This document shows positions 919 through 64,000 of a stretch of DNA of 64,000 bases, piece after piece. A program made the position numbers and the translations under genes. The notes under the pieces are model-generated. The model worked only from the letters and a program-made list of their open reading frames with translations. It made no database searches and had not been told where the DNA came from. This DNA comes from a virus. The DNA lies in the IMG/VR virus record IMGVR_UViG_3300031132_000323, positions 3,113-67,112 of that record. One strand, written 5' to 3'. The stretch's first letter is position 1, and every line of letters begins with the position of its first letter.

Positions 919-3807
919 TTAGCTGGCGGTGACGGTGATGAGGCGCTGCGTGTTAACTGTGTTGCCGCCCTTGGTCGCTGCGCAGTTGACGTAGAAATCG
1001 CCCGCGTCACCCGCCAGCGCCGCCCCGCCCTTCATGTTGATGTGCAGCTGCATCCGATTGGTAGCGCTGTCCTGTACGAGCCAGCACGGCCACGGCCCGC
1101 TGACGGTCCAGTTGAAGGACGCGCCATCGTTGCCTGTGTCAATGGTTGCGATGTACAGCCCGGCATAAGCATCGGTGCTTAGTCGGTACAGCGTGTAGTT
1201 GTACTGGTTCTGGCTGTTGGTGATGCCGAGGCTGAAGGGCGACAGGACTGGGTTGATGATTACCGGGCTGTCCAGACGCAGCTGGCGGCCGCTATAGCTC
1301 AGGCCAGGCGCTTCAATGACCCCGTTCGACCCAATGCTAAAAAAGCCCGAGCTTGCGTCATTCCTGTTGCCGAATAACAAGCCGTTTGCATGGATCAGGA
1401 AGCCCGCGCCTGCGCTGGGCCAAGCCCATGAACCATCAAAATTCCCTGATGCGATGAACCCACCGGGAGCAATACGCAATGCCCCAAACGTACCATACGC
1501 GGCGTCCAGGCTGCCAGCGAAAACGGCATTGCCATTTGTGTCGAGAACAAACGTGTATTTGCTGCCGTTGTGTGTGAGGATGCCGTAGGGCGTGATAGCT
1601 ACGCCCTTGCCGCTGCCATAAAGTCCGCTGCTCGCGTCGTACATGAATGTTCCTACGACGACGCCGCCGCCGGTGGCGATGGTGATCGGCGCGCGCAGGA
1701 TATTGCTGGCGTTCGCAGCTAACTTATTAGGCAAGTCGTTATAGGCAAGTTGGCCAGCATACGCGTAGTCCGATACCGTTTGCGCGTCTCGATTACCTAC
1801 GTTCGTTCCGGCCGGCGCGCCAACAGTAGCGCCAGGCTGGAAGCGCGTGATTCGCGGTCGCGCTATAAATGCCTCTCCGAAGTTGCTGAAGGCATCCATC
1901 TGCACCCACGGCAAGGCATAAGCCGCATCGGACGGAACAACGGATTTACCCTTTACCGCAGTCCATCCTGTGCCTGGCGCAATCGTGGTGCCGCAAGGGT
2001 CCCAGATTTGGCGGGATGAGCCGTCAGCACGTTTATAGTCAAGGCCGAACGAAACGTTGCAGCTTGCCCCGCCGGCAGAAAGGTAGGCCGAGACGTAGAG
2101 CGTTTCACCAGGGACGACGCGGATGAGGCTGAGTTCTTCCGTATCACGCGCAGAAACCGACATTGCCCGCTTAAACGGCATACCTTGAACGGCCGCGGTC
2201 CAGCGCCCCGTCCAGAGTCCGATAGAGCTATCATCAAAATCGCTTTTGAGCCCGAGATTGAGGGCGTCGTCAGGCCTGCCGTCAACATTCTGATACTGGG
2301 CAGTGGTGGCCGCCGCCTGAATGCTTGGCACCAGCTCGGTATTTTTCGTGCCAGTTGCAGCATAGTCAGAAGCGAGCGCCGAGCCGGCTGCCAGGATGAC
2401 GTTGCCAGCGGCATCCTTGATGCTGAGCCCGCGCGTATCGATCTTGTCGGCTGCCACGGTATTCTTCACCAGCAGGCTGCCGTTGATGACCTGCGCCACC
2501 GAGATCCAGGCACTGCCGTTCCAGTACCGGGTGCTCGCGAAGCCGGCGGCTTGGTTGTAGAGCGTCACGACGTCCAGCATCTGCGGCACGCCGTAGCCGG
2601 TTTGCGCGATCGCTGCGGTGGCCTCGCTGTCCGACCACACGCTGCCGGCGGTGCCTGCCGAGATGTCGACTGTGCCGCGCTGGCCCGGCTGGCCCGGATT
2701 ACCCGGGACGCCTTGCCCGCCCTTGAATCTCGACCAGGTGTAGTCGGCCTTGTTGGTTGACTCGGTGGCGGTCACCTTGTTGACGGCAATTCCGATGTAC
2801 ACGGTCGAATCGGTTGGGACGTCGTACAGGCCGGTACCGTCCGGCACGTCGGCATACTTGATCCACGTATAGTAGGTCGTCCCGTCCTTGCCTGGTTGGC
2901 CCGGCACACCTTGCCCGCCCTGGTTCAGAGACCAGGTGTAGTCCGCCGGGTTCTCGCTCTCGACCGGCGTCGTCTTGTTGTAGGCGAAGCCGATGTAGGC
3001 CTTGTTCGTCGGGTCGTCACTCAGGCCGGCGCCGGCGGCTGAATCCCCGTACTTGATCCAGGTGTACAGCGCCGGCCCGGGCACCCCCTGATCGCCTTTG
3101 AACCGCGACCACACATAGTCAGCTGGATTGTTCGACTCGGTTGCCGTGGCCTTGTTGACCGAAATGCCAATGTAGAGCGTGTTCGCCGTGGGCAGCTCAT
3201 ACATGCCGTCGCCGTTTGGATAATCCGCGTATTTGATCCAGGTGTAGAGCTGCGCGCCGTCGTCCCCCTTCGGACCGGGCTGGCCATCCGTGCCCTTGAT
3301 GAGGGACCAGGTGTAATCGGAGCCGATGGTCGATTCGATCGGCGACGACTTGTTGTACGCCAGGCCGATGTAGGCTTTCCCGGTCGGGTCGTCGCTCAGT
3401 CCGGCGCCGGCCGCCGAGTCCGCGTACTTGATCCAGGTGTAGGTAGTCGAGCCGCCCACGCCGTCCTGCACTTTCGTGACCGTGCACGGCTTCGTATAGG
3501 TCCGGCCGTTCACGGTCGCGCTCGCGATGACGGTGACGCTCGATCCGGTCATCGCGGCGCCTACGACGGTGACCGACTTCGCGGTAGGGCTGCTCAGCGG
3601 CGCACCGGTGGCGTTGAACGTCAGCGGCGCATCCAGATCAATCAGCGTTGCCGTGAAGGTGATCGATTCTGGCGTGATCGAGCCGTCGGCATTTGCCTTG
3701 AACAGCGGCGCCGACGGCAGCAGCTGGATGTCTGCGGTCGGCAGGTTGACCGTGCGCGCCGCGGCGGCCTGCAGCGTCGTGTCGATGAAATTGACTACAG
3801 TAGCCAT
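919..3807 (-). CDS. Tail fibre / receptor-binding protein with YTWIKYAD repeats, collagen-like linkers and a CBM-like domain
   Basis: 962 aa; four YTWIKY(A/G)D repeats with GXY linkers; follows the tail-tip genes. Confidence 0.85.
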   Translation of the reverse strand: MATVVNFIDTTLQAAAARTVNLPTADIQLLPSAPLFKANADGSITPESITFTATLIDLDAPLTFNATGAPLSSPTAKSVTVVGAAMTGSSVTVIASATVNGRTYTKPCTVTKVQDGVGGSTTYTWIKYADSAAGAGLSDDPTGKAYIGLAYNKSSPIESTIGSDYTWSLIKGTDGQPGPKGDDGAQLYTWIKYADYPNGDGMYELPTANTLYIGISVNKATATESNNPADYVWSRFKGDQGVPGPALYTWIKYGDSAAGAGLSDDPTNKAYIGFAYNKTTPVESENPADYTWSLNQGGQGVPGQPGKDGTTYYTWIKYADVPDGTGLYDVPTDSTVYIGIAVNKVTATESTNKADYTWSRFKGGQGVPGNPGQPGQRGTVDISAGTAGSVWSDSEATAAIAQTGYGVPQMLDVVTLYNQAAGFASTRYWNGSAWISVAQVINGSLLVKNTVAADKIDTRGLSIKDAAGNVILAAGSALASDYAATGTKNTELVPSIQAAATTAQYQNVDGRPDDALNLGLKSDFDDSSIGLWTGRWTAAVQGMPFKRAMSVSARDTEELSLIRVVPGETLYVSAYLSAGGASCNVSFGLDYKRADGSSRQIWDPCGTTIAPGTGWTAVKGKSVVPSDAAYALPWVQMDAFSNFGEAFIARPRITRFQPGATVGAPAGTNVGNRDAQTVSDYAYAGQLAYNDLPNKLAANASNILRAPITIATGGGVVVGTFMYDASSGLYGSGKGVAITPYGILTHNGSKYTFVLDTNGNAVFAGSLDAAYGTFGALRIAPGGFIASGNFDGSWAWPSAGAGFLIHANGLLFGNRNDASSGFFSIGSNGVIEAPGLSYSGRQLRLDSPVIINPVLSPFSLGITNSQNQYNYTLYRLSTDAYAGLYIATIDTGNDGASFNWTVSGPWPCWLVQDSATNRMQLHINMKGGAALAGDAGDFYVNCAATKGGNTVNTQRLITVTAS
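2672..3447 (-). repeat. Four ~60-aa tandem repeats (A-B-A-B) in the tail fibre
   Basis: YTWIKYADSAAGAGLSDDPT-type and YTWIKYAD.P.G.G.Y..PT-type units alternate, each ending in GXY triplets. Confidence 0.9.
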
Positions 3808-3816
3808 GCAGCTCCT

Positions 3817-5136
3817 TCAGATTGACCGGACAGTAACTTTTGACCCGTACCGCTCAGCGGCCTGCAGCGCGATCTCAGAATCGCCCATGCGCTTCCCGAG
3901 AACGGTATGCGCACGCTCCGCCTCGAGATCAGGGTCGCCGGTGCGCACGCTCACGAAGATCGGGTATGCCCGGCTCGCGCGCAGGATGTTGGCCAGCCGC
4001 GTGCGGTCCGCCGGCGCCAGCGCGCTCATCTCGATCGAGATTTCTTTGCTTATCGTCGAGGCACGGCTCAGCAGGTCGCCGGCGGCGGTACTGTAATGCG
4101 TCGTCGCATCCACATCCGTCGCGGAGACAGACGTCAGCCCATAGGGCGGTGACCAGTACCGACCGATGACCAGTTTGGAAGCTTCGATGTAGCCCTGCAG
4201 GTTGTTCGTGTCGACCAGGTCGATGGCGAAGGCGCGGAATTGCGTCTCGGGGAACCATGCGCGCGCATAGGTGCCGCCACCGTAGGCGTAGGCGCTTGCC
4301 GACTGCGCCGCAGTCCAGCCCTCCAACTGGATCGCCGGCGCCGGGCACGCCAGCACGACGCCGGTGTCGCAGTCGTAGCTCTGCCAGGTATCGATGTAGC
4401 CTGCCGGCCGCACGCCCTGCGTTGCCCCGCTGGGGAAATATGAGGACAGCGCGCCGCTGTCGATCTGCGCGCCGAAGATGTGCACCACGTCGCCGGCGCT
4501 CGCCGAGTCAGGCGCATCAACGCGCACACGGTAGCTGCCGCCGGTGGACACGTTGCAGGTAGCGGCGTAGCGCACCCATCCGGCACCCAGCGGCCGGGCA
4601 TCCACCGCCGAGACGAAGCCGCCCAGCCCGCCGATGTTCCAGAACCAGACGTTCGGCGCCTTGCCTACGCTGCCGCCGACGCCCTTCAGGAAAATCGAGA
4701 AGGTGTATGTGCCGGGCGTCAGGGTCAGCGTCTTGTCGAAATACGGATCCGAGCCAGTCGCCGTGATGGCGAACGCGTTGTTCGAACCATCCGGCGCCGA
4801 GACGCCGCCAGACAGATTCAGGCCGACCTTTTCCCAACTGGAGTCGCCGAAGGCCTCGCTGTAGGTGATCAGGTTGGTTTTGCTCACCTCGTTCGACAGG
4901 CGCACGCGCATCGTGGTCGTCGGCGAGAAGTTGCCGAGCAGCGCCGCGCCGGACGCGAGCTCGGGCGCCGGCAGCGTGCCGCCGATCCGTGCCGCCGTGC
5001 CGGTGGCGCGCCAGACGTCGCTCTTCTTGTCCGAAACCAGGTTGGCGGCGACGAGCAGGCCGTCGGTGCTACTGGCAACCAGTCCAGGCGTGACACGGCG
5101 CGCCGCGTTGCTGGCGATGATCCTCAGATTTCCCAT
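3817..5136 (-). CDS. Minor tail protein (distal-tail-like) with inserted carbohydrate-binding-like domain
   Basis: Tail-tip position; internal TNLITYSEAF...GTYTFSIFLKG...W.RY...VHIFGAQID beta-sandwich insert. Confidence 0.65.
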   Translation of the reverse strand: MGNLRIIASNAARRVTPGLVASSTDGLLVAANLVSDKKSDVWRATGTAARIGGTLPAPELASGAALLGNFSPTTTMRVRLSNEVSKTNLITYSEAFGDSSWEKVGLNLSGGVSAPDGSNNAFAITATGSDPYFDKTLTLTPGTYTFSIFLKGVGGSVGKAPNVWFWNIGGLGGFVSAVDARPLGAGWVRYAATCNVSTGGSYRVRVDAPDSASAGDVVHIFGAQIDSGALSSYFPSGATQGVRPAGYIDTWQSYDCDTGVVLACPAPAIQLEGWTAAQSASAYAYGGGTYARAWFPETQFRAFAIDLVDTNNLQGYIEASKLVIGRYWSPPYGLTSVSATDVDATTHYSTAAGDLLSRASTISKEISIEMSALAPADRTRLANILRASRAYPIFVSVRTGDPDLEAERAHTVLGKRMGDSEIALQAAERYGSKVTVRSI

Positions 5137-5143
5137 GGGTTCC

Positions 5144-6598
5144 TTAAATCGTGACTTCCGCCGTGACGGCGTAGGTGCCGAAGTTCGTCGTCAGGCTGGT
5201 GACCAAGCTAGGCTTGCCGGCGCCCAGGCCGAAGCGGTCGCTGAATAAGTTGCGCGCCTCGCCCAGCTCGATCAGCATGCCGGCCGGCGTCAGCTGGACG
5301 CGGTACGTAGTGCGCGGCACCTTGACGATCGCCAGGCGCCGCTCGGCCTCTGCCCTCGCGTCGGCTGGCGTCAGCAGACAGGTGTCGATCGGCGCCGGGT
5401 CGGCGTACAGGCTGTATGCCGCCTGCGTCGCCGCGTCGACCGCGGTGTACGTCTGCCACTCGGTGGCGAACATCTGCTTGTGCTCGGCCGGCAGCGAGGT
5501 CTGGAGGTTCGACTGGACCGTGTAGTTGCGGCAAAACCGGATCTGCACCGCGGCGGCCACCGTCGACCGCGCGACCGGCACCAGCGAATCCTGGACCTGC
5601 ATCGACCGCGGAATGCTCAGCGTCGCCGAGGCCGGGATCGCATACTGGATCAGCCGAAGCTTGCCGAGCATCGACGGAATCACTTGGGCGCCCTTGCTCG
5701 ACGCCAGCTGCGCCGCCGCGGTCAGAACGTTGGTCCGGTCGAGGATGGCCAGGCCGACCGGTTGCGAGTTTGCGGCGTCGAAAGCAGCAAGGTTCGCTGC
5801 ATCCATGTCGCTCGCCGTCATGCGCGTCGACTCCTTGCCATACTGGGTGGCGAAGATCTGGATCAGCTGGGCGATCCGGTTGCGATAGATACCGCCGGTC
5901 TTGTCGCCTTGGGCGCTGCAGGTCACCGCGCCAGGCCCGACCGCGGTGTTGAAGGCGAACCGGCCGCTGGCCGGATCGTCCGTCACGTCTGGCGAGCGCT
6001 TCTTGCCGTCGGTGCGCGGCTCAATCACGCCCTCGGCGCCGGCCCAGTGGTAGTGCCATTGCCCGGTGACGCTGTCGTACTTCGGCGTCATGTTGGGCAC
6101 TTCGCCGAATGCGCCTGGCACCAGCGTGCCATCGGCGAACTTCGCCTCCGACAACGGGGTGTTCAGCCGCTGCAGTGCATCCCTGAACTTCAGGACCAGC
6201 GTCGTGCGGTCGGCGCCGTAGGCGATGTCCGCCAGGTTGCCGACGAAGGACAGGCGGAAATCCGTCTCATCCCACCGGGCATCGCCGACGTAGACCTCAA
6301 CCCGCTGGTTTGCCCACACATCGGTGAACCAGGAATCGAGCTCCCCGCCGACGTTCCAGACTTCGACGTCGCCGGCCGACAGCTTCGCATCCCCATCCAT
6401 CGAGATCGAACGGGAAATCTCCAGGTCCTTGGCGATGACCGCCGAGTAAGGCGCGGCCGCCGGCCCGGTGAAGTTCCGGTTCGACAGTCGCCTTGTGACC
6501 TGTGCGCCGCCGCTCACGCAGCCGACACGGTACAGGGTCACGCGCTGCGCGGTCGAGTCGTCGAGCCACGCAGCGTATTGCGCATCAGAGATTGTCAT
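5144..6598 (-). CDS. Minor tail / tail-tip protein
   Basis: 484 aa directly after the TMP with overlapping stop/start. Confidence 0.7.
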   Translation of the reverse strand: MTISDAQYAAWLDDSTAQRVTLYRVGCVSGGAQVTRRLSNRNFTGPAAAPYSAVIAKDLEISRSISMDGDAKLSAGDVEVWNVGGELDSWFTDVWANQRVEVYVGDARWDETDFRLSFVGNLADIAYGADRTTLVLKFRDALQRLNTPLSEAKFADGTLVPGAFGEVPNMTPKYDSVTGQWHYHWAGAEGVIEPRTDGKKRSPDVTDDPASGRFAFNTAVGPGAVTCSAQGDKTGGIYRNRIAQLIQIFATQYGKESTRMTASDMDAANLAAFDAANSQPVGLAILDRTNVLTAAAQLASSKGAQVIPSMLGKLRLIQYAIPASATLSIPRSMQVQDSLVPVARSTVAAAVQIRFCRNYTVQSNLQTSLPAEHKQMFATEWQTYTAVDAATQAAYSLYADPAPIDTCLLTPADARAEAERRLAIVKVPRTTYRVQLTPAGMLIELGEARNLFSDRFGLGAGKPSLVTSLTTNFGTYAVTAEVTI

Positions 6599-54264: not shown

Positions 54265-54795
54265 ATGACCACTACCCCAGCAGTAGCCCCGCTATCAGCG
54301 GCCTTGGACCGCAACGCGATCCGCGCAATTTTCCTGCAGCACGGCTTTACGATCAAGGAAGGGCAGACCGACCTGAAACCGTATGTGTACGAGGCAGCCG
54401 ACGCCCTGATCGCTCAGGCACGCGCCGCCCAATCGGGCCTGAACGCCGACGAGATGGCCCGCCTGCGGCGCATGATGCGCGCACTGAGCATTGACGAGAA
54501 GCGATGGAGCGACGAGCAGGCGCGCGATGCCATGTGTACCGTATTCGGTATGGCTGCCGGCCAGCTTGAAGGCATCGCAGCTGATCGCGCACAGCAGGCA
54601 GGTGCAGCAGCGCTGAGCGATGAACAACGCGAGCGGGAATATTTCGCGCGTCACCCGATTGAGGACCAGGGCGCCGGCATGCAGGTGGCGGACCAAGAAC
54701 GGCTGAAGCTTACGACCGCTGACTTTGAAGACCCCGGCGCCGTCATTGCCGACCTGCGCGCCCAGCTCGCGCGCCAGGGTCAGGTGCAGAAATGA
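54265..54795 (+). CDS. Hypothetical protein
   Basis: IRAIFLQHGFTIKEGQTDLKPYVYEAA module; GAGG RBS. Confidence 0.65.
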   Translation: MTTTPAVAPLSAALDRNAIRAIFLQHGFTIKEGQTDLKPYVYEAADALIAQARAAQSGLNADEMARLRRMMRALSIDEKRWSDEQARDAMCTVFGMAAGQLEGIAADRAQQAGAAALSDEQREREYFARHPIEDQGAGMQVADQERLKLTTADFEDPGAVIADLRAQLARQGQVQK

Positions 54796-55295
54796 ACCGG
54801 CCGACCATCGAGCACGTGCGCGAGCTTTTCAGGTATGACCCCGAGACCGGGAGTATCTACCTGAAACACTCGCGACAAAGGGGCTTCGATCCGAGCAAGC
54901 CGGTGGGTCATGTGAATCGCGGCTATGTGCGAGTCAACGTTTGCGGTCGGCTCATTACGGCCCACACCCTGGCTTGGGCGCTTCACCACGGCGAGTGGGT
55001 TGACCGGCTGGATCATATCGACCGGGATCGGGCGAACAACCGCATCAACAATCTGCGCCCAGCTACGAATGGCCAGAACCAGGCGAACGGTGGTGTGCGG
55101 GGCGCAATTCCGGCTAAGGGTGTGTACCTGAATTCGAGGCGCACCAAGTACGCCGCTGAAATCAACTTTGACGGCGGCCGCAAGTTCCTTGGCCACTTCG
55201 ACACGATGGACGAAGCGGCTCACGCCTACAACAAAGCTGCGATCTTGCATCACGGTGAGTTCGCCCTATTGAATCCGATTGGAGCAGATAAATGA
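54792..55295 (+). CDS. HNH-AP2 homing endonuclease
   Basis: LFRYDPETG...AH.LAW.LHHG...DHIDRDRANNRINNLRPAT..QN...LGHFDT.DEAA.AY..AA...HGEFA. Confidence 0.92.
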   Translation: MNRPTIEHVRELFRYDPETGSIYLKHSRQRGFDPSKPVGHVNRGYVRVNVCGRLITAHTLAWALHHGEWVDRLDHIDRDRANNRINNLRPATNGQNQANGGVRGAIPAKGVYLNSRRTKYAAEINFDGGRKFLGHFDTMDEAAHAYNKAAILHHGEFALLNPIGADK

Positions 55296-57180: not shown

Positions 57181-57256
57181 GCGCCCTCCCCTTTGCACAG
57201 ATCGCATAGTGGATGCGGCTGCAGCTGTGGCAGCCGGTACCGAGAAAGGAAGAATA

Positions 57257-57484
57257 ATGGACGAGATGTTTCTGGACGATGATGAGGTGCGCAGCATGAC
57301 GCACCGCGTGCAGCGGGCCGCCCAGGCGAAGATGCTACGCTCCATGGGCATCGCGTTCAAGCAGCGCGCCGACGGCACCCTGGCGGTGCTGCGCGCGCAC
57401 GTCGAGAAGGAGTTCGGCGCCGGCGCCGAGCGCAAGTCGAAGGCGAAAGAGTTTCAACCGAACTGGGGTGTGCTGAATGCCTAG
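57257..57484 (+). CDS. xis: Excisionase-like protein (DUF4224)
   Basis: FLDDDEVRSMT....AQAKMLRSMGIAF..RADG...V...PNW; directly upstream of int. Confidence 0.85.
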   Translation: MDEMFLDDDEVRSMTHRVQRAAQAKMLRSMGIAFKQRADGTLAVLRAHVEKEFGAGAERKSKAKEFQPNWGVLNA

Positions 57485-58571
57485 GAAGCGCAACAAGGAG
57501 AACGTCGGGCTGCCGGCGCGGTGGAAGATCGAGCACGGCGCCGTCTACTACCAGGTGCCGGTCGGGCTTGAGGATCGTTGGGACGGGAAGAAGAAGTTCC
57601 GGCTCGGCGCCAACCTGCCGGAGGCGTACAAGGAGTGGGCGCGCCGGCTGGAGTCGGTGGACCAGGCGAAGACCATCGGCGCCCTGCTCGACCGGTACGC
57701 GCTCGAGGTTGTGCCGACGAAAGGTGCGCGCACTCAGGTGGAGAACCAGCGCGCAATCCGCGGCCTGCGCGCCGTTTTCGGCGAGGCGCCGTTGACTTGG
57801 CTGCGGCCGCAGCACGTCTACCAGTACGCGGACAAGCGCAAGGCCACGCCAGTAGCGGCAAACCGTGCCATTGACGTCCTGTCTCACGCCTTCACCATGG
57901 CAGTGAAGTGGGGATACATCGACCGGCACCCGTTCAAGGGCGAAGTGCGCCTGGACGGCGAGAAGCCGCGGGATCGGTACGTCGAGGACTGGGAGCTGGT
58001 CGAGTGCCTGTCGCTCGACAGCAAGCGCTCGAAAGGCAGCGTGCTCGTGCTGCAGGCGTACATCCGGATCAAGCTGCTGACCGGCCTGCGCCGCGGCGAC
58101 CTGCTGCGCCTGACGAATGCCGACATGAAGGAGGACGGTATCCACGTCACACCCAACAAGACCCAGGGCAGCACCGGAAAGCGTCTCATCATCGAATGGT
58201 CACCGGAGCTGCGCGAGGCGGTCGACGTCGCCAAGTCGGTGCGGCCGGTCGACATTGCGCCGTGGCTGTTTTGCACACGCAAGAGCGAGGGCTACGTCAA
58301 CGAGGAAAAGGGAACCGCCAGTGGCTGGGACTCGATGTGGCAGCGCTTCATGGAGCGGATCCTGAAGGAAACGAAGGTCAAGGAGCGGTTCACCGAACAC
58401 GACCTGCGCGCCAAGTGCGCCAGCGATGCGGAGAGCCTGGAGCACGCCCGCGCGCTGCTCGCGCACGCCGACAGCCAGCTCACGCAGCGCGTCTACCGGC
58501 GCCGGCCGGAGCGGGTCAAGCCTGGGAAATTAAACTTTGAAGGCCACCATGCCACGAGCAAGAAATCCTGA
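57477..58571 (+). CDS. int: Prophage tyrosine integrase
   Basis: TGLRRGD, HDLRAK, LAHAD, RVYRR catalytic motifs. Confidence 0.96.
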   Translation: MPRKRNKENVGLPARWKIEHGAVYYQVPVGLEDRWDGKKKFRLGANLPEAYKEWARRLESVDQAKTIGALLDRYALEVVPTKGARTQVENQRAIRGLRAVFGEAPLTWLRPQHVYQYADKRKATPVAANRAIDVLSHAFTMAVKWGYIDRHPFKGEVRLDGEKPRDRYVEDWELVECLSLDSKRSKGSVLVLQAYIRIKLLTGLRRGDLLRLTNADMKEDGIHVTPNKTQGSTGKRLIIEWSPELREAVDVAKSVRPVDIAPWLFCTRKSEGYVNEEKGTASGWDSMWQRFMERILKETKVKERFTEHDLRAKCASDAESLEHARALLAHADSQLTQRVYRRRPERVKPGKLNFEGHHATSKKS

Positions 58572-59172
58572 AAACAGCGACCTGCCAAATCGTTGGCGTC
58601 GAAGCCGCAACGCTATCTACTACCAAGTGCCGAAAGAACAGCAGCATCTATGGGGAGGAAAGCAACAGGTTAAGCTTGGCCATACCTTAGAAGAGGCGCA
58701 TGCGAATTACTCGTCCATGGTGGATCGCCCAGACCCACTTGAAATGTGCAAATTGAGGAATGACGTCAGCGCACGAGTGGTGAGTGCTAATCGCTGGCGA
58801 CAACTGCACCACTACGACGCATCATGCGGGATCCCGATTGGGTTCCTGCAAGGGATATATGGCAGCTCACGAACTGGGGCGGCCGCGCGCGGCTTCACCT
58901 TTGACCTAATTCCGGCTGACATGGCGACTTTGGCCATGCGCGCGAACGGTAAGTGCGAGCTCTCGGGCATCGCATGGGACTTCAAAAGCAGATCGTTTCG
59001 CGGCAAGCGACCGTGGGCGCCTAGCCTTGATCGGATAGACTCCAGTCAAGGCTACAGCCTGGAGAACTGCCGCCTAGTTGCTGTCGCTGTGAACATTGCT
59101 CTAAGTGACTTTGGCGAAGAAATTCTACTCAAGATAGCCATCGGCATGGCCTCAAAACTTAAGATTGAATAG
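58549..59172 (+). CDS. Integrase arm-binding-domain copy fused to an HNH/His-Me-type nuclease domain
   Basis: N-terminal ~58 aa align with the Int N-terminus; C-terminal KCELSG...PSLDRIDSSQGYSLENCRLV...N. Confidence 0.8.
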   Translation: MPRARNPENSDLPNRWRRSRNAIYYQVPKEQQHLWGGKQQVKLGHTLEEAHANYSSMVDRPDPLEMCKLRNDVSARVVSANRWRQLHHYDASCGIPIGFLQGIYGSSRTGAAARGFTFDLIPADMATLAMRANGKCELSGIAWDFKSRSFRGKRPWAPSLDRIDSSQGYSLENCRLVAVAVNIALSDFGEEILLKIAIGMASKLKIE

Positions 59173-59239
59173 CGCAATTCGCAGGAATAGCGCAGATGCC
59201 AAAAAACAGGGTCGCCCGTTATATCGCAAGCTGCTGATT
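59167..59239. promoter_or_regulatory. Integrase arm-type repeats and IHF site of the prophage att
   Basis: GAATAGCGCA at 59167-59176 and 59185-59194; reverse AATCAGCAGCTTG at 59227-59239. Confidence 0.65.
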
Positions 59240-59252
59240 TGACAAAGAATTT

Positions 59253-59299
59253 TGGCCTGCCCAGCTGGGTTCGAACCAGCGACCCTCAGCTTAGAAGGC
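59253..59299 (-). tRNA. 3' half of tRNA-Arg(UCU) forming the att core; 5' half absent here
   Basis: Minus strand GCCTTCTAAGCTGAGGGTCGCTGGTTCGAACCCAGCTGGGCAGGCCA: anticodon TCT, T-loop GTTCGAA, CCA end; no D-arm upstream. Confidence 0.88.
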
Positions 59300-59388
59300 C
59301 GCACCCCATTCAAAGAAACCGCGCTAAAATAAGGGCTCCCGGCTTTTCGCCGCGATCTCTGTCCAAATTTTGTCCAAGTGAGGAAGGC

Positions 59389-60552
59389 ATGGCTAACATC
59401 CGCAAGCGCGGCGAAAGTTATCAAGTTCGCATTTTTAGACAAAATGAGAATGAAACCACTCAACTAAGCAAATCGTTTAAAAAACACGCCGACGCGCTCG
59501 TGTGGGCGCGCCAAATCGAGGGCAAATTGGACAGGGGCGAGCGCGTCAGCGCGAAGGCGCAACAGTTCATGTTTTCGGCCGCGTGCGACGAATTTGCGGC
59601 GCGCTATCGCCCGCGAGGCGCGGCCGAGGATGGGGCGTTGAGCGCCCGCGAGTCCCAGCTTGTTGCGGCCGTGCGCGGGTTCTTGTGCGGCGATCAATTG
59701 CAGCGGGATCGCACCATCGCGAGCATCACGCGCGCGACGCTGCAAGACTTTATCGACAAGATGGGCAAGACCCGCTTTGACGACCCGGGCAAGCCCAGAA
59801 AAGGAAGCATTTATTACGACGGCGGGCGCGCTCGAACTTACGCCCCGAGCACCGTGCGCCACCACTATTTTCAAATTAAAAAGATTTTGCAGTGGCATAG
59901 CCGCGCAGAGCAATACCCACTCGACCCTGACCTTTTCGAGGGCTTGCACATTCCGAGCGCGTGGGCGGGAAAACGCGAGCGACGCATGGAAGAAGGCGAG
60001 CGCGAAGCGATTGAGAACGCGGCCCGAACGGGTCGAAAACTCGGCGCCGAGTGGCTGCTTTTGATGCGCTTCGCGCTGGCGACAGGCGCCCGAGCGCAAG
60101 AGATGATTAAAGCGAAATGGAGCGACATAAGCTTGCCGCGCAAGACTTGGGACATTCCGCCGGAAAATGTGAAAACCTCGACTTTTCGACAAGTGCCGTT
60201 GCCGCGCGAGGCGGCGGCGGTCCTCGAAGAATTGAAGGCGCGAGACGAGCGCACAAAAGCGGAGCGCGAAGCCGATCCCCGCCCCTTCCACTTTTGGGCC
60301 GATACCTCGACCCTCTCAAAAGGTTGGCGCCGGCTGTGCGTGCGCGCAAAGGTCAAGGGGTTGACATTCCACGACCTGCGACACGAAGGGATTTGCCAGC
60401 TCTTCGAGTATACGACGCTCACGGACGCGGAAATTATGAGCATTACAGGCCACACGAACATTAGCACGCTGCGCGGCTACATGAAGCTGCGGCCCAATCT
60501 GCTCGCGGACAAGATTGACGCGGGCTTTGATCGCAGGAAAGCGGCCAAATAA
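59389..60552 (+). CDS. int: Tyrosine integrase of the second element
   Basis: MANIRKRGESYQVRI...; TGARAQE, FHDLRHE, ITGH, GYMKL. Confidence 0.93.
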   Translation: MANIRKRGESYQVRIFRQNENETTQLSKSFKKHADALVWARQIEGKLDRGERVSAKAQQFMFSAACDEFAARYRPRGAAEDGALSARESQLVAAVRGFLCGDQLQRDRTIASITRATLQDFIDKMGKTRFDDPGKPRKGSIYYDGGRARTYAPSTVRHHYFQIKKILQWHSRAEQYPLDPDLFEGLHIPSAWAGKRERRMEEGEREAIENAARTGRKLGAEWLLLMRFALATGARAQEMIKAKWSDISLPRKTWDIPPENVKTSTFRQVPLPREAAAVLEELKARDERTKAEREADPRPFHFWADTSTLSKGWRRLCVRAKVKGLTFHDLRHEGICQLFEYTTLTDAEIMSITGHTNISTLRGYMKLRPNLLADKIDAGFDRRKAAK

Positions 60553-60612
60553 TCGCGCCGCATCACGAAAAAGAAAGGCGCGGTTTCCCGCGCCTTCCTC
60601 CCCCTCCCCGCT

Positions 60613-62787
60613 TCACTGTTCGCCCTTCCCCCTCTTCTCTTGCATCGCTTGGCCGGCGTCGGCTCGCGGATTGCCTTCGCCCTTAGTGCGCTCGCGGCGG
60701 GCGTCAAGCGCGGCTTTCGCGCCGACCGCGCCAAGCCCTTTGGACACCGCGCCGCCGGCCGATTGGCCCACGCCCTGCGCGCCGCCTTGGCCGGTCTTCG
60801 AGAGGGCTTGCGCGCTCTCTCCAAGCTGCTCGTGTCCGCCGCCAACCCAGCGCATCAGCTTGTCCGGGATCACGGTGATAAAGCCAAACACGAAGTGGAA
60901 CAGAAACAGCATCGCGCCGAAGTAAATGCCGACCATCGTGATTAGAGTTCCAAGCCCGACGACGCTGCCCGCCATCGCCATCTTGAACGCGGGAAAAAAG
61001 ATGCCGTTGAAGCCTTGGACAAGCAAATCAAGCGCGCCCATCGAGCAGACGAAGCCCAGCACGATCAGCACCGGGCGCAGCAGCACGCCGAGCAAGAGCG
61101 CGTAGCCTTGACGCGCGCCGCCCGCGATGCCGTCGCCTTCGGGCGTCAAGTGCATGATGGCCCAAACGGGGGCGGCAATGACGGCTTCGAGACAGAGCAG
61201 CAGCCAGCCAGCGAAGGCGCCGAAGTAAATCAAGAACGGCGCCATCGGCAGATAAACCGCGATGCCGGCGGCAAAGAAAAAGAGCGCGAAGCAAGCGAAA
61301 ATCAGCATGTAGCCAACCGCCTGCATCGCGCCGGATGCCGCTCCCGCAAGCGCCTTGGACGCGCCAAAACTCATGACATTCGCCGCCTCGCCGAGCAAGC
61401 TGTTGTTTTCTGAATCGACCGCCTTGGCCGCGCTCGTCATCAGCACGCCCGCGCCCATGCCGGCCTCGGCGCCGGTCATCAAGTAGTCGCCGAAGTCTTT
61501 CACGCTCATAAGCGCGCTGCGATTCTTGTCCACCTGAATCGCGCCGGCGATCCCGCCAAAAACTGAACTCATCACTTCCCGCGCGCCTTGCGTGAGCGGG
61601 CTGGAAGTGTTGCCGAGGTCGCTTGACGCGCTCGCGGTTGCGCTCAATGCGCCGCCGGGATTCGTCGCAAGCGTGTCGAGACGCGCGAAGTAAATCCCCA
61701 TACCAGGCGGGAGGCGGCTGGCGGTCGGACGGGTCGCCGCTGGGGTGTGCGCGATGGCGCCGTTAAGCGCGTCTTGCATTTGGGCAAGTTTTGAGTAATA
61801 CGCCCCGGCGAACATCCAGCCGTCTTTGCCCGCGCTTTGGACGAAGCTGTCGAGCGCTTGCGAGTTGTTGTAGACGCTCGCCGCCGCTTGGCTGACGCTC
61901 TTTTGATACGCTTCGACCGCCGCGCCGACATCGGCGGCGACATCGGGCGCCGCGCCGTCGTGGATGCTTTTCGCCACGCCCTGGGCGGTCTTCGCCATGG
62001 ACGCTTCAAGCGCCGCGAAGGCTTGCCGGTGCGCCGCGTCGATGCTGTCCAGCGCGCTCGCGTCGTATTCGATGCCCGCCCAGCCGGCGATTTTCGAGCC
62101 CGCGCCGCGCGATTGAAAGCGCACCGCGCCGCACTCCGTCCCGCCGTTCACGCCGTAAGCGCGCACGCCCTCGGCCGGCGTCGCCGCCGCCATGGGATCG
62201 GCCATGATGTTGCTTGCCGCGCCTTCGCCGCGCAGGTCGTTGAAGGCCGCCATGCACACTTGCGAAGCAAGCACCGCATTGGCAAGCTCGGAGACATTGG
62301 GAAGCCGCGCGCGCGGCGCCATCCCTTGCGGGGTGGTGAACGCTCCAAGCCATGCGTTGAAGGTTTGATCGGCCAGCCCCACGCCCTGCCCGATCAAGAA
62401 TCCGACGAGCATTTGCGCGACGCAGTAGCCGCCGGACATCGGGACCACCAAGCCAATGCCGAGGACCGTGCGGATGGGGAGCCACATGGACGACCAACGC
62501 TTGCCCAGCGCTTCGCCGTCGTGCGCGGTCTGCATGATGCCGGCGATGAGGCTGTAAGCCAAGAAGATGCCGCCGACGGTCAGCGCGCCGCCGTTGAGGA
62601 TACCAAGCGCCTTTTCAAGCGCGCCCGCGCCGCCTCCGCACTCGGAGAAGAGTGAGCCGAAAAGCGGCGCGAGATAGTCGCTCATTGATCGATCAGAGCA
62701 AGAAACCTCAAAGAAATTAGGGGCGGCGTTTGCGCTCGCGCTAGCGAGAGCGGTCAAGAGCCCGGCGAAGAGTTTGGCGCGCATCAT
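60613..62787 (-). CDS. traY: DotA/TraY family type IVB conjugation membrane protein
   Basis: D.S..YL..LFG, TAHDGEALGKRWSSMWLPIRTV.G, GY..AQ, G.GLAD, GWMFAGAYY, YLPMAPF, LLRPVL..GF motifs. Confidence 0.9.
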   Translation of the reverse strand: MMRAKLFAGLLTALASASANAAPNFFEVSCSDRSMSDYLAPLFGSLFSECGGGAGALEKALGILNGGALTVGGIFLAYSLIAGIMQTAHDGEALGKRWSSMWLPIRTVLGIGLVVPMSGGYCVAQMLVGFLIGQGVGLADQTFNAWLGAFTTPQGMAPRARLPNVSELANAVLASQVCMAAFNDLRGEGAASNIMADPMAAATPAEGVRAYGVNGGTECGAVRFQSRGAGSKIAGWAGIEYDASALDSIDAAHRQAFAALEASMAKTAQGVAKSIHDGAAPDVAADVGAAVEAYQKSVSQAAASVYNNSQALDSFVQSAGKDGWMFAGAYYSKLAQMQDALNGAIAHTPAATRPTASRLPPGMGIYFARLDTLATNPGGALSATASASSDLGNTSSPLTQGAREVMSSVFGGIAGAIQVDKNRSALMSVKDFGDYLMTGAEAGMGAGVLMTSAAKAVDSENNSLLGEAANVMSFGASKALAGAASGAMQAVGYMLIFACFALFFFAAGIAVYLPMAPFLIYFGAFAGWLLLCLEAVIAAPVWAIMHLTPEGDGIAGGARQGYALLLGVLLRPVLIVLGFVCSMGALDLLVQGFNGIFFPAFKMAMAGSVVGLGTLITMVGIYFGAMLFLFHFVFGFITVIPDKLMRWVGGGHEQLGESAQALSKTGQGGAQGVGQSAGGAVSKGLGAVGAKAALDARRERTKGEGNPRADAGQAMQEKRGKGEQ

Positions 62788-63188
62788 TGCCCCCCGTCTT
62801 CGTCGTCAAAGCGGTGGGGGCGGGTGAGGTCGGCGAGGCGCACGCGGCGCGCTTGCTCGCGCTCTTCGTCCAGCTTTTCGCGACGCATGCGGGCTTGTCG
62901 CTCCCGTTCGCGCCGGCGCTCTTTGCAGCCGTTTCGGCGATGCCAGTGTTTGACACAGTGAACGAGCGAAGACCACTCGCGCGGCGACTTTTCGTAGATC
63001 GACAACAGCAAGAAAAGGCCCGCAAGCGAAAGCGCTGCCAGCGGCGCGGGCGATTCGATGGGGCCGAAGATGTCGCCGCCGGCTTCAAGCGCGAGCGCGG
63101 ACGCGCAAAAAGAAAGCGTCGCGCTATCAAGCCACACGCGCGGGCGCGCTCTCCCGATGTTGATGAGATTTACAAACGCTTGCCGCAC
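62784..63188 (-). CDS. Membrane protein upstream of traY (TraX position)
   Basis: Two hydrophobic segments, ATGA overlap with traY. Confidence 0.5.
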   Translation of the reverse strand: MRQAFVNLINIGRARPRVWLDSATLSFCASALALEAGGDIFGPIESPAPLAALSLAGLFLLLSIYEKSPREWSSLVHCVKHWHRRNGCKERRRERERQARMRREKLDEEREQARRVRLADLTRPHRFDDEDGGQ

Positions 63189-63288
63189 GATTCACCCCCG
63201 CTCTTGTTGTTCTCCTTTTGTTTTATCAATCGGATAATGCGGGGGCAACACCATAGCGCAAAGCTTGCGCCAAGCGGATCGCCGTCGG

Positions 63289-63567
63289 TCAGTCCAGCCG
63301 GGACGCTAGATCGCCTTTTTCTTCTTCGATGTTCAACGCTTTGCAAGCGTGCCACGCGGCGCGCATGGCCCGCGCTTTCCAGCCCTCGAAGTGGGCGACG
63401 GGGACGCCTTTGACGAAGCTCGCGGCGACGACTTCGCGGCCGTCGCGATGCGTGAGCAAGACCCGCGCGAGCGTTCGCGCGTCGCTGTCTTCATCGAGCC
63501 TAAAAGACCATGCGCGCCCGACTTCGGGCGCGAACAGTGGAAGATGATCCAAGCGGCTCTTAGTCAT
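63289..63567 (-). CDS. Hypothetical protein
   Basis: Start MTKSRLDHLPLF overlapping the upstream stop. Confidence 0.55.
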   Translation of the reverse strand: MTKSRLDHLPLFAPEVGRAWSFRLDEDSDARTLARVLLTHRDGREVVAASFVKGVPVAHFEGWKARAMRAAWHACKALNIEEEKGDLASRLD

Positions 63568-64000
63568 TGCGGCCGATCTTTTTGAGTTCAGAGGCCGCGC
63601 GGAGCTTGTCGTTTCGCGCGATGACTTGGGCGCTAAACGCGGATTCAAGGTTGGCGCGCTCCTCCCGCTCCATGGCTTCCGCCTCGCGCTCGCGGAGCGT
63701 GCGCCCCGTCAGCGTGTCATAGGCCGACAAGCCGAGCGCAAGCGCGAAGCCCGCAGCGCCGACGGCTGCGCAGACCCACAAACCAGAATCCCCCATCGTC
63801 AACGCGGCAACGCCCGCCGCGCCGACGAAGAAACAGGCCATGCCGGTGGCGGTGTTGGGGTCTTTGGGACTTCCGCGCAACATGATAGACCGAATGAGCA
63901 CGAAGAGCGCGGCAAGGCCCACGGTCAGCGCGATCAGTTCCAACGCGAGGCCGCTGTTATAGACTTCGGGGCGGGGTGCGACGATGGCGGGAAAGCTCAT
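63560..64000 (-). CDS. Membrane protein (three TM segments); start at the window edge
   Basis: Three hydrophobic segments and a charged C-terminus. Confidence 0.6.
   Translation of the reverse strand: MSFPAIVAPRPEVYNSGLALELIALTVGLAALFVLIRSIMLRGSPKDPNTATGMACFFVGAAGVAALTMGDSGLWVCAAVGAAGFALALGLSAYDTLTGRTLREREAEAMEREERANLESAFSAQVIARNDKLRAASELKKIGRND

Follow-up and report, generated by a model that had tools for sequence, protein, structure and literature searches.

We analyzed a stretch of 64,000 nucleotides of viral DNA (IMG/VR virus record IMGVR_UViG_3300031132_000323, positions 3,113 to 67,112; the whole stretch is called here the window) and describe in it an open reading frame (ORF) of 207 amino acids that follows a tyrosine integrase gene, int1. 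We read the ORF as a small nuclease cassette, acquired horizontally and located between the last sense codon of int and two direct repeats of the arm type, beyond which lies the core of the attachment site (att). Its N-terminal domain (N-domain) resembles the arm-binding domain of the neighboring integrase (Int), and its C-terminal domain is predicted to be a nuclease similar to R.PacI. From this arrangement we infer arm-site binding, cleavage and homing by the protein. That the ORF is a free-standing homing-type endonuclease, a paralogue of the integrase arm-binding domain serving to target the arm sites of the phage attachment site (attP), is the reading we prefer, and we give it slightly less than an even chance. 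Full-text literature searches, which covered a minority of the subscription journals, gave no description of a nuclease placed between int and the arm repeats with a targeting module paralogous to the arm-binding domain of the integrase next door, nor any paper on a fusion of this kind beside int.

The N-terminal domain and integrase arm-binding domains

The first 62 residues of the ORF and the first 62 residues of int1 could be aligned without a single gap, with 26/62 identical positions (42%, E 2e-14 by BLASTP). The Smith-Waterman score of the two N-termini was 140, above 300 of 300 shuffles (z 24), and the N-termini of int1 relatives match the N-domain of the ORF at 36-51% identity (tblastn). 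This domain is all that the ORF has in common with int1, and no PF00589 recombinase catalytic domain, which has the R..H.R..Y residues, was found in the ORF. In the AlphaFold2 (AF2) model the N-domain has strands at residues 16-19, 22-26 and 40-44 followed by a helix at 47-59, a predicted sheet-plus-helix arrangement as in residues 1-64 of lambda Int. The only structural matches of residues 1-64 were to the arm-binding domain of the lambda integrase, the best being 2wcc, the lambda Int DNA-binding domain (Z 4.1, rmsd 4.8, 57 aligned), with further matches to 5j0n_G (Z 3.9), 1z1b (Z 3.4) and 1kjk (Z 3.4). The Pfam and NCBIfam scans of the whole ORF gave no match. Specifically, no Pfam arm-binding model matched the ORF at E <= 1, and the N-terminus of int1 itself was likewise without a match; neither was there a winged-helix or HTH_17-type Pfam match in the ORF, for which the model shows the sheet-plus-helix N-domain. 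By its homology, the N-domain counts as a paralogue of the int1-family arm-binding domain.

In order to place it within that family we used a tree of 68 N-domains, from which 10 of the 64 loci with int1 relatives were left out for having a partial or offset N-terminus (L134, L135, L147, L148, L154, L155, L157, L159, L160 and L161; L numbers are our labels for loci). The 13 nuclease-fused domains, 10 of them with PacI-like nucleases and 3 with nucleases of the GIY-YIG type, split from all 55 Int domains with a support of 99/95. This branch indicates that the N-domain of the nucleases is a distinct paralogous lineage common to two nuclease types and not a fresh copy from int. A recent duplication of the N-domain of int1 itself is ruled out by the same tree.

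A predicted PacI-like nuclease domain

The C-terminus of the ORF matched three PHROG families, phrog_3322 'endonuclease' (E 4.4e-21, residues 103-203), phrog_3118 'HNH endonuclease' (8.2e-12) and phrog_1035 'endonuclease VII' (4e-9). The AF2 model was made from 88 sequences (88 of the 108 available, without near-duplicates, ORFs that were very short and the 5'-open one of L001) and reached a mean pLDDT of 89.7 and a pTM of 0.70. In this model residues 80-204 superpose on the whole of PacI (3ldy_A, chain residues 4-140) with Z 8.8, rmsd 3.8 A and 116/142 residues aligned (VIA-align), and the Foldseek comparison with PacI gave E 1.7e-3 and a probability of 1.00. Below PacI in the structural ranking, the next unrelated structures had Z 7.2, other HNH domains 4-5.5 and T4 endonuclease VII 3.4.

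PacI has no catalytic His of the usual kind but a Tyr in its place, and its single metal is held by an Asp and an Asn, according to reviews (PMC5714182, PMC4081073 and PMC3384342). The ORF motif aligns with the PacI stretch DRSDSFEGYSPQNARLACFICN (PacI columns DR.D..GY...N........N), that is, S-L-D161-R162-I-D-S-S-Q-G-Y169-S-L-E-N173-C-R-L-V-A-V-A-V-N182 of the ORF over G-V-D-R-S-D-S-F-E-G-Y-S-P-Q-N-A-R-L-A-C-F-I-C-N of PacI. In this alignment D161, Y169 and N182 would reproduce the His-less arrangement, with a Tyr in the omega loop and Asp plus Asn as metal ligands. Residues S159, D161, R162, Y169, N173 and N182 were invariant in the 88 sequences, including those found in contexts that lack an integrase, and C136, P158, I163, D164, R175 and V177 were nearly so. 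A homodimer was predicted for residues 80-207 with a score of 0.72, the best of 3 controls having 0.00, a value that may only reflect the likeness to the solved PacI homodimer. Of the proteins solved as same-chain pairs 20 of 30 came up to the mark applied to this score, as did 1 of 23 solved as single chains. Agreement between the runs extended to at least 98% of the contacts, with a partner pLDDT of at least 86. Taken as modeled, the C-terminal domain would be a dimeric PacI-like His-Me nuclease with Asp and Asn as metal ligands and Tyr as the base, putatively cutting DNA.

An earlier note on this DNA, made by inspecting the sequence, had reported the gap-free alignment of both N-termini, which holds over the 62 residues. 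It had also described the gene as a duplicated arm-binding domain fused to an HNH-type nuclease. The integrase-type N-domain and the His-Me fold can be retained from that description; what has to be corrected is the origin of the N-domain, which is not a recent copy of the domain of int1 itself, and the subtype of the nuclease, which is PacI-like and His-less (DRxD...Y...N...N), without the Zn-binding cysteines.

The annotation of the PacI-like domain is inconsistent in public phage records (e.g. NC_071141.1, NC_047946.1), in which it appears as hypothetical, endonuclease, HNH endonuclease or 'Srd anti-sigma factor'. In the Pfam scans of the 88 members the only match to a model for the nuclease core was a weak one to His_Me_b4a2. 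In two Ralstonia phage records (PP358257.1 and PP358254.1) the match ends within ~50 nt of the end of the record.

Insertion at the stop codon of the integrase gene

Scanning the viral contigs with int1 gave 64 loci with relatives, and the PacI-like domain was found in 0/64 of them (tblastn). The closest relatives are 80-85% identical at the DNA level across int, and their homology to the window ends at 58529-58541 and resumes at ~59165; in L098, for example, locus positions 4055 and 4061 correspond to window positions 58531 and 59165. The ~623 extra bases in between (58542-59164) are essentially the ORF alone. In L098, L099, L103, L104 and L111 the int gene ends in ...GGGAAATTGGCGTTTGAATAG (KLAFE*) and its stop is located inside the first of two GAATAGCGCA direct repeats, the second of which comes 19 nt after the first in the nuclease-less relatives and is followed by the tRNA core. 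The repeats were at -3 and +16 from the int stop in 7/7 uninterrupted relatives for which there was downstream sequence. Since the int stop of the relatives falls in the first GAATAGCGCA repeat, the ORF can be described as an insertion of ~623 bp at the int stop.

The details of the junctions in the window fit together with this description. The ATG of the ORF lies 23 nt before the stop of int1, so that both reading frames overlap, and its TAG stop is inside the first GAATAGCGCA repeat. With the insertion, int1 acquired a tail of nine residues (GHHATSKKS), and its former ...TTGAATAG end now belongs to the ORF. The sequences coding for KLNFE (58527-58541) at the end of the int1 homology and for KLKIE (59155-59169) at the end of the ORF share 11/15 nt, because both flanks derive from the original int end ...AAATTGGCGTTTGAATAG. 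The G+C content of the inserted DNA was 0.54-0.59 versus 0.64-0.68 in int1. The 3' part of a tRNA gene lies ~60 nt beyond the repeats. The earlier note had located the gene between int and the att core, with its stop in the first repeat, and had taken the echo of the int end as a sign of insertion at the original int stop; all of this is borne out by the relatives that lack the gene, from which the echo is also explained, and by the second integrase family described below.

As for the repeats themselves, the GAATAGCGCA 10-mer was found 4 times in the whole window allowing one mismatch or none, versus 5.2 expected, and is therefore not enriched. Its significance comes from conservation and not from this count: both copies appear as invariant blocks in 8 aligned relatives in which the surrounding DNA varies. 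The start-to-start spacing is 18 nt in the window versus 19 nt in 11/11 relatives having both copies. Extra GAATAGCGCA copies, one inverted and one direct, were seen beyond the core in L099, L106-L108, L149 and L137, located ~160-250 nt downstream of the int stop or of the first repeat pair. Their appearance suggests the other arm of an intact attP, which would make these contigs excised or circular.

The spot between int and att is used by other genes as well. In L100 and L106-108 it holds two-gene cassettes on the opposite strand (L106 4082-5505, minus strand; L100 4093-5117, minus strand; 348 + 126 aa and 207 + 134 aa) that may be toxin-antitoxin or defence pairs. The presence of other cargo marks the int-att junction as a hotspot.

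We found the same insertion in a second, unrelated integrase family. The Int of L250, a locus on the same contig as L083, is ~33% identical to int1, and the ATG of its nuclease overlaps the TGA stop of int. The nuclease ORF, ~507 bp, is located between the int stop and two ATATTCAG direct repeats, after which comes a tRNA-like core. In L249, with an Int 76% identical to that of L250 and no nuclease, the int gene is followed at once by the two ATATTCAG direct repeats and the tRNA-like core. Presence and absence of the gene are sporadic, precise and gene-sized when the window is compared with L098, L099, L103, L104, L111 and L149 and when L250 is compared with L249. The gene is also missing from L243, the Int of which is 92% identical to that of L030; its downstream flank was unrelated and no boundary was drawn there. 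The relatives of the L020 integrase were too distant for a comparison of flanks. One more pair is L244 (=L039) and L242 (=L030), in which int and the DNA downstream of the nuclease are 74-75% identical and the nuclease genes show no DNA similarity and ~30-47% protein identity. By these identities the nuclease appears to have diverged, or to have been exchanged, faster than its flanks.

Distribution of the family and association with integrases

Full-length homologues of the ORF were found at 35-81% identity, with 27 word-indexed matches, and a library of 1.84 billion proteins gave 1226 cluster representatives at E <= 1e-10 and 4 at E <= 1e-30. The relatives collected were 257 from IMG/VR (80 kept), 17 from species genomes and 100 from metagenomes (80 kept); the metagenome scan gave no close relative of the ORF, the best having 47% identity over the C-terminal domain. 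Among the 97 genome and viral loci, 26 had a tyrosine integrase within 250 bp, mostly 0-5 nt upstream and on the same strand, and 30 had one within 1.1 kb, 29 of these 30 neighboring ORFs matching PF00589. A search for this architecture next to other integrases had been proposed earlier, a lack of association with int and att being the outcome that would count against the idea, and the architecture does recur. In two genome loci int is followed by the nuclease and then by an intact tRNA gene, tRNA-Pro in L002 and tRNA-Cys in L004; in L010 the tRNA is located between int and the nuclease.

We compared the N-terminal part of each nuclease with the first 130 residues of the neighboring Int. In 17/27 pairs the score exceeded 300/300 shuffles (z 6-27). 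The cognate Int came out on top among 28 in 10 pairs and was within the top two in 18. L010 was dropped from this comparison (its N-terminal part has 2 aa) and the near-duplicates L020/L022 and L019/L021 were both counted; ORF starts in the loci were taken as the first ATG, GTG or TTG, and were sometimes over-extended (e.g. L025, L041 and the int of L083). The matched N-domains belong to different types, with motifs such as MGRRR..LP, SGKWRAQV, GIRK.S..S.E..F and RHGK.RYYFR. The metagenome pairs added four significant cases (L166, z 9.9; L170, z 26.1; L178, z 19.1; L174, z 4.2) and five without similarity between the N-domains. Pfam detected Arm-DNA-bind_2 in 2 of the 88 nucleases (E 5.2e-13), Arm-DNA-bind_1 in 1 (E 0.009), Phage_AlpA in 1 and HTH_17 in 1. 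In the first set of loci a profile made from N-domains gave weak matches only and BLASTP with the N-domain by itself gave none; more could be learned from the pairwise comparison with shuffles.

The association with integrases is also apparent in a tree of the nuclease domain, built with the window and 81 unique nuclease ORFs of L001-L097, leaving out the P-series proteins. In this tree 25 of the 28 integrase-adjacent entries fall in one clade of 38 (SH-aLRT 90, in a quick tree with few columns). Adjacency to an integrase changes 9 times along the tree versus a mean of 23.4 when shuffled, and 0/500 shuffles gave a number as low. In L001 (2-1363) there is a 5'-open frame of 453 codons with the PacI-like domain at its end, overlapping a fragment of an integrase that is in another frame; a fusion of int and nuclease, a frameshift and an assembly artefact are all conceivable here.

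A GIY-YIG counterpart and other nucleases of the region

In L153, L152 and L140, N-termini similar to that of the ORF (MPRPRNPEN..LP.RW...) are fused to GIY-YIG nucleases, again beside int1-like integrases. PF01541 was matched with E 2.7e-5 in L153, above the cut-off, and with 7.6e-4 in L140, just below it; L152 had no PF01541 match at E 0.1 and was placed with the GIY-YIG fusions by aligning it by eye. In L153 the GIY-YIG ORF is located between the int stop and a GAATAGCGCA repeat at the 3' end of the ORF. The same locus has another gene combining DUF4224 and GIY-YIG just beyond the att core (4834-5301), indicating that a second DNA-binding module of the integration region has also been fused to a nuclease.

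The window has a further nuclease. A 167-aa ORF at 54792-55295 on the plus strand matches HNH_3 (E 2.2e-10) and, after it, AP2 weakly (E 2.2e-4, not reaching the cut-off); by these matches the same prophage has a canonical homing-type endonuclease of the AP2-HNH kind. Together with the 207-aa ORF, it means that the phage would carry two nucleases with DNA-binding domains of the integrase/AP2 class. The AP2 and integrase N-domains are said to have been regarded as one fold class by Balaji and colleagues in 2005.

Gene neighborhood of the int-att region

The features of the region are collected in Table 1. The start of int1 is overlapped by a DUF4224 gene, which may serve the integration module in excision or regulation. 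We found neither a promoter-like site nor, on the plus strand, a terminator-like one between int1 and the ORF, and the ORF would be co-transcribed with int. The tRNA remnant was not called by ARAGORN or Rfam in the window; it aligns with the 3' part of the intact tRNA-Arg(tct) that ARAGORN detects after int in L103, L104 and L111. The att core is present as a single copy in the contig of 67,112 nt. A second element (59253-64000) includes the integrase gene int2 plus a multi-pass membrane protein of 724 aa on the minus strand (60613-62787). With the int2 element inserted at the tRNA remnant, there are two elements in tandem at one tRNA-Arg site.

Table 1. Features of the int-att region of the window, in window positions
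Feature	Coordinates	Strand	Basis or remarks
DUF4224 ORF, overlaps int1 start	57236..57484	+	PF13986 E 7.6e-14
int1, tyrosine integrase, 364 aa	57477..58571	+	PF00589 E 8.3e-9; phrog_1 integrase E 8.5e-37
Left junction, last int stretch homologous to nuclease-less relatives, AAATTAAACTTTGAA = KLNFE	58527..58541	+	blastn, alignment with L098, L099, L103, L104, L111
Inserted segment, ~623 bp, missing from closest relatives	58542..59164	+	blastn, alignments
207-aa ORF	58549..59172	+	ATG 58549, stop TAG 59170-59172; N-domain, helical linker, PacI-like nuclease domain
N-domain, residues 1-62	58549..58734	+	BLASTP against int1; AF2 model; match to lambda Int 2wcc
PacI-like His-Me finger domain, residues 80-204	58786..59160	+	Structural match to 3ldy_A, Foldseek
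Putative active-site motif S159-L-D161-R162-I-D...G-Y169...N173-x-R...N182	59023..59094	+	Invariant residues, PacI alignment
First GAATAGCGCA repeat, putative arm-type Int site	59167..59176	+	Exact match; holds ORF stop TAG
Second GAATAGCGCA repeat	59185..59194	+	Exact match
3' part of tRNA-Arg(UCU), att core remnant	59253..59299	-	Homology to intact tRNA-Arg in relatives
int2, integrase of second element	59389..60552	+	PF00589 E 7.5e-20

Possible roles of the nuclease

If the ORF is a homing-type endonuclease, a dimer would bind both adjacent arm-type repeats through its N-domains, and the DNA near them would be cut by the nuclease core. The int-attP junction of related phages without the gene would be cleaved in this way, and recombinational repair would copy the gene in. 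This reading explains the position of the gene exactly beside its presumed recognition site. We favor it because the distribution is sporadic and the insertion is minimal and flanked by target-derived sequence, and because two classic homing-nuclease folds are found on one targeting domain in that same position.

There are nevertheless several observations that weigh against homing. The arm repeats are intact beside the gene, and a homing enzyme would need a self-immunity that is left unexplained; the only differences seen are the changed upstream context and the spacing of 18 instead of 19 nt between repeats. Co-expression with Int would put the nuclease on the very sites that Int needs. With 42% identity and a separate lineage for the nuclease N-domains, an identical DNA specificity is not assured, and the fold match of the N-domain is modest for such a small domain (Z 4.1), although it agrees with the direct sequence homology to int1. 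About two thirds of the loci have no integrase nearby and carry other N-domains (these integrase-less members include Ralstonia, Pseudomonas and Klebsiella phage records), and among the 27 pairs 3 showed weak similarity and 7 none (L002, L019, L021, L006, L025, L031 and L076). On the side of the nuclease, PacI was the sole match of a sequence search of the PDB (phmmer), with a marginal similarity (E 0.21), and conservation does not extend to its two Cys4 zinc sites: C136 alone is near-invariant, and where PacI has its CxxC columns the ORF has C-E-L-S and A-V-A-V. Finally, the position by itself could simply mark a hotspot for morons.

Other roles have to be considered with the same data. Made by the prophage or upon infection, the nuclease could act against competitors without homing, docking on the arm sites of incoming phages with the same integrase family and attachment site, destroying their attP or genome and guarding the tRNA site for the resident. 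This is close to the homing model, as homing amounts to exclusion plus gene conversion, and the structural and comparative evidence serves both. The gene is accessory and sporadic, the int-att spot is a cargo hotspot in which relatives carry opposite-strand two-gene cassettes, and in the window the tRNA-Arg site is occupied in tandem by a second element with its own integrase, all of which would suit a gene for exclusion. We consider it unlikely, though, given that with the int overlap and no promoter-like site found expression would follow int and not the lysogenic state, that the arm repeats of the resident itself are intact and adjacent, and that a gene-sized insertion flanked by target-derived sequence is predicted by homing and not required of a defence gene. 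A regulator of recombination that does not cut seems to us improbable. Its N-domain would compete with or complement Int at the arms and the PacI-like dimer would be a scaffold, biasing integration versus excision (directionality or copy control). The translational link to int, with the start of the ORF overlapping int and that of the L250 nuclease overlapping the int stop, is in line with such a role, as are the N-domain of the same family as the local Int, a predicted dimer that could bridge two direct repeats and the loss of the PacI Zn sites. There is also a precedent in His-Me domains that lack catalysis and keep DNA binding, e.g. Smad MH1 (PMC5714182). Yet all 88 sequences, integrase-less contexts included, keep the putative catalytic residues (Asp, Arg, Tyr and both Asn) without variation, and the appearance of an unrelated GIY-YIG fold on the same N-domain and in the same place is hard to explain for a mere scaffold. 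Close relatives without the gene indicate that it is not a required directionality factor, and an essential excisionase is ruled out by the same absence.

We find it very improbable that the protein is a structure-selective nuclease associated with the intasome, recruited to the arms as a dimer to resolve or remove stalled Holliday junctions or abortive Int intermediates. Both the His-Me and the GIY-YIG superfamilies include junction-resolving enzymes, and the PHROG 'endonuclease VII' match, the presence of T4 endonuclease VII among the fold matches and the predicted dimer would fit this role. PacI is by far the best structural match, however (Z 8.8 versus 3.4), the gene is dispensable in close relatives and the domain family is common in phage contigs without a nearby integrase. 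Least credible of all is a functionless by-product in decay, i.e. what is left of a second integrase gene, joined accidentally to a piece of a nuclease. A G+C content below that of the neighboring genes and the absence of Pfam or NCBIfam matches could be seen in this light, but the fold prediction is confident, there are full-length homologues 35-81% identical with common invariant motifs, and the same architecture recurs with several unrelated types of Int N-domains. A pseudogene or gene fragment as such is ruled out by this conservation of full-length homologues and of the invariant motif.

The homing reading can be extended beyond this phage, as a conjecture that we put forward tentatively and that has a modest chance of being right. 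A widespread and undescribed class of selfish nucleases would home into the int-attP junctions of temperate phages and integrative elements by using the arm-binding domain of the local integrase; the nuclease core would be interchangeable (PacI-like or GIY-YIG), the targeting domain would track the integrase family, and cuts beside int would drive the gene conversion of whole integration modules. If so, the mosaicism and site-switching of int/att cassettes would be explained in part, with a mechanism for the exchange of int-att modules and a defined insertion hotspot at the junction of int stop and arm site, and these proteins would be natural, reprogrammable 'arm-site-guided' nucleases, a family that would owe its specificity to a copy of the DNA-binding module of a neighboring gene. 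If they do cut at or near arm sites, attachment sites would be arenas of conflict between related temperate phages, besides being integrase substrates. There would also be many natural sets, each joining the arm domain of an integrase to that of a nuclease and to a repeat, in which to study the evolution of arm-site specificity.

Comparison with known systems

The best structural match of the nuclease domain is R.PacI (PDB 3ldy/3m7k), classified in 'group 20' of the His-Me finger nucleases in PMC5714182. Both have the motif DR.D..GY...N.RL.....N, lack a catalytic His and present a conserved Tyr in the Tyr column of PacI. PacI is a homodimer, and the prediction of one for the ORF may stem from this likeness. 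The ORF differs in the addition of an integrase-type N-domain and a flexible linker and in its prophage int-att context, which is not a restriction locus; its specificity probably comes from the added N-domain rather than from the nuclease core. The N-domain in turn is similar to the arm-binding N-domains of lambda-type integrases (PF09003, PF12167), by the homology to residues 1-62 of int1 and by the three-stranded sheet plus helix, and some members of the nuclease family match the Pfam arm models directly. Unlike these integrases, the ORF has no core-binding or catalytic recombinase domain, and its N-domain forms a lineage of its own apart from the 55 Int N-domains. With the directionality factors Xis, AlpA and Cox it shares being a small accessory protein of the integration module that probably binds the att arm, and one relative of the nuclease has Phage_AlpA and another HTH_17. 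However, the ORF lacks a winged helix or HTH, has a conserved nuclease motif and is missing from relatives that keep int, and for the directionality role there is another candidate in the DUF4224 gene that precedes int1.

By analogy, the overall logic appears to be that of the modular phage homing endonucleases (I-TevI and I-HmuI types) and the AP2-HNH proteins. In both cases a small His-Me or GIY-YIG nuclease is tethered to a separate DNA-binding domain, and the gene occurs in some close relatives and not in others, as an insertion the size of one gene, flanked by conserved features and beside its presumed target. The order of the domains in the ORF, DNA binding and then nuclease, is the reverse of that in the HNH_3-AP2 ORF of the window. 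The presumed target of the ORF would be an attP arm and not a conserved coding sequence, and its targeting domain is paralogous to the arm-binding domain of the neighboring integrase and changes type with the integrase family.

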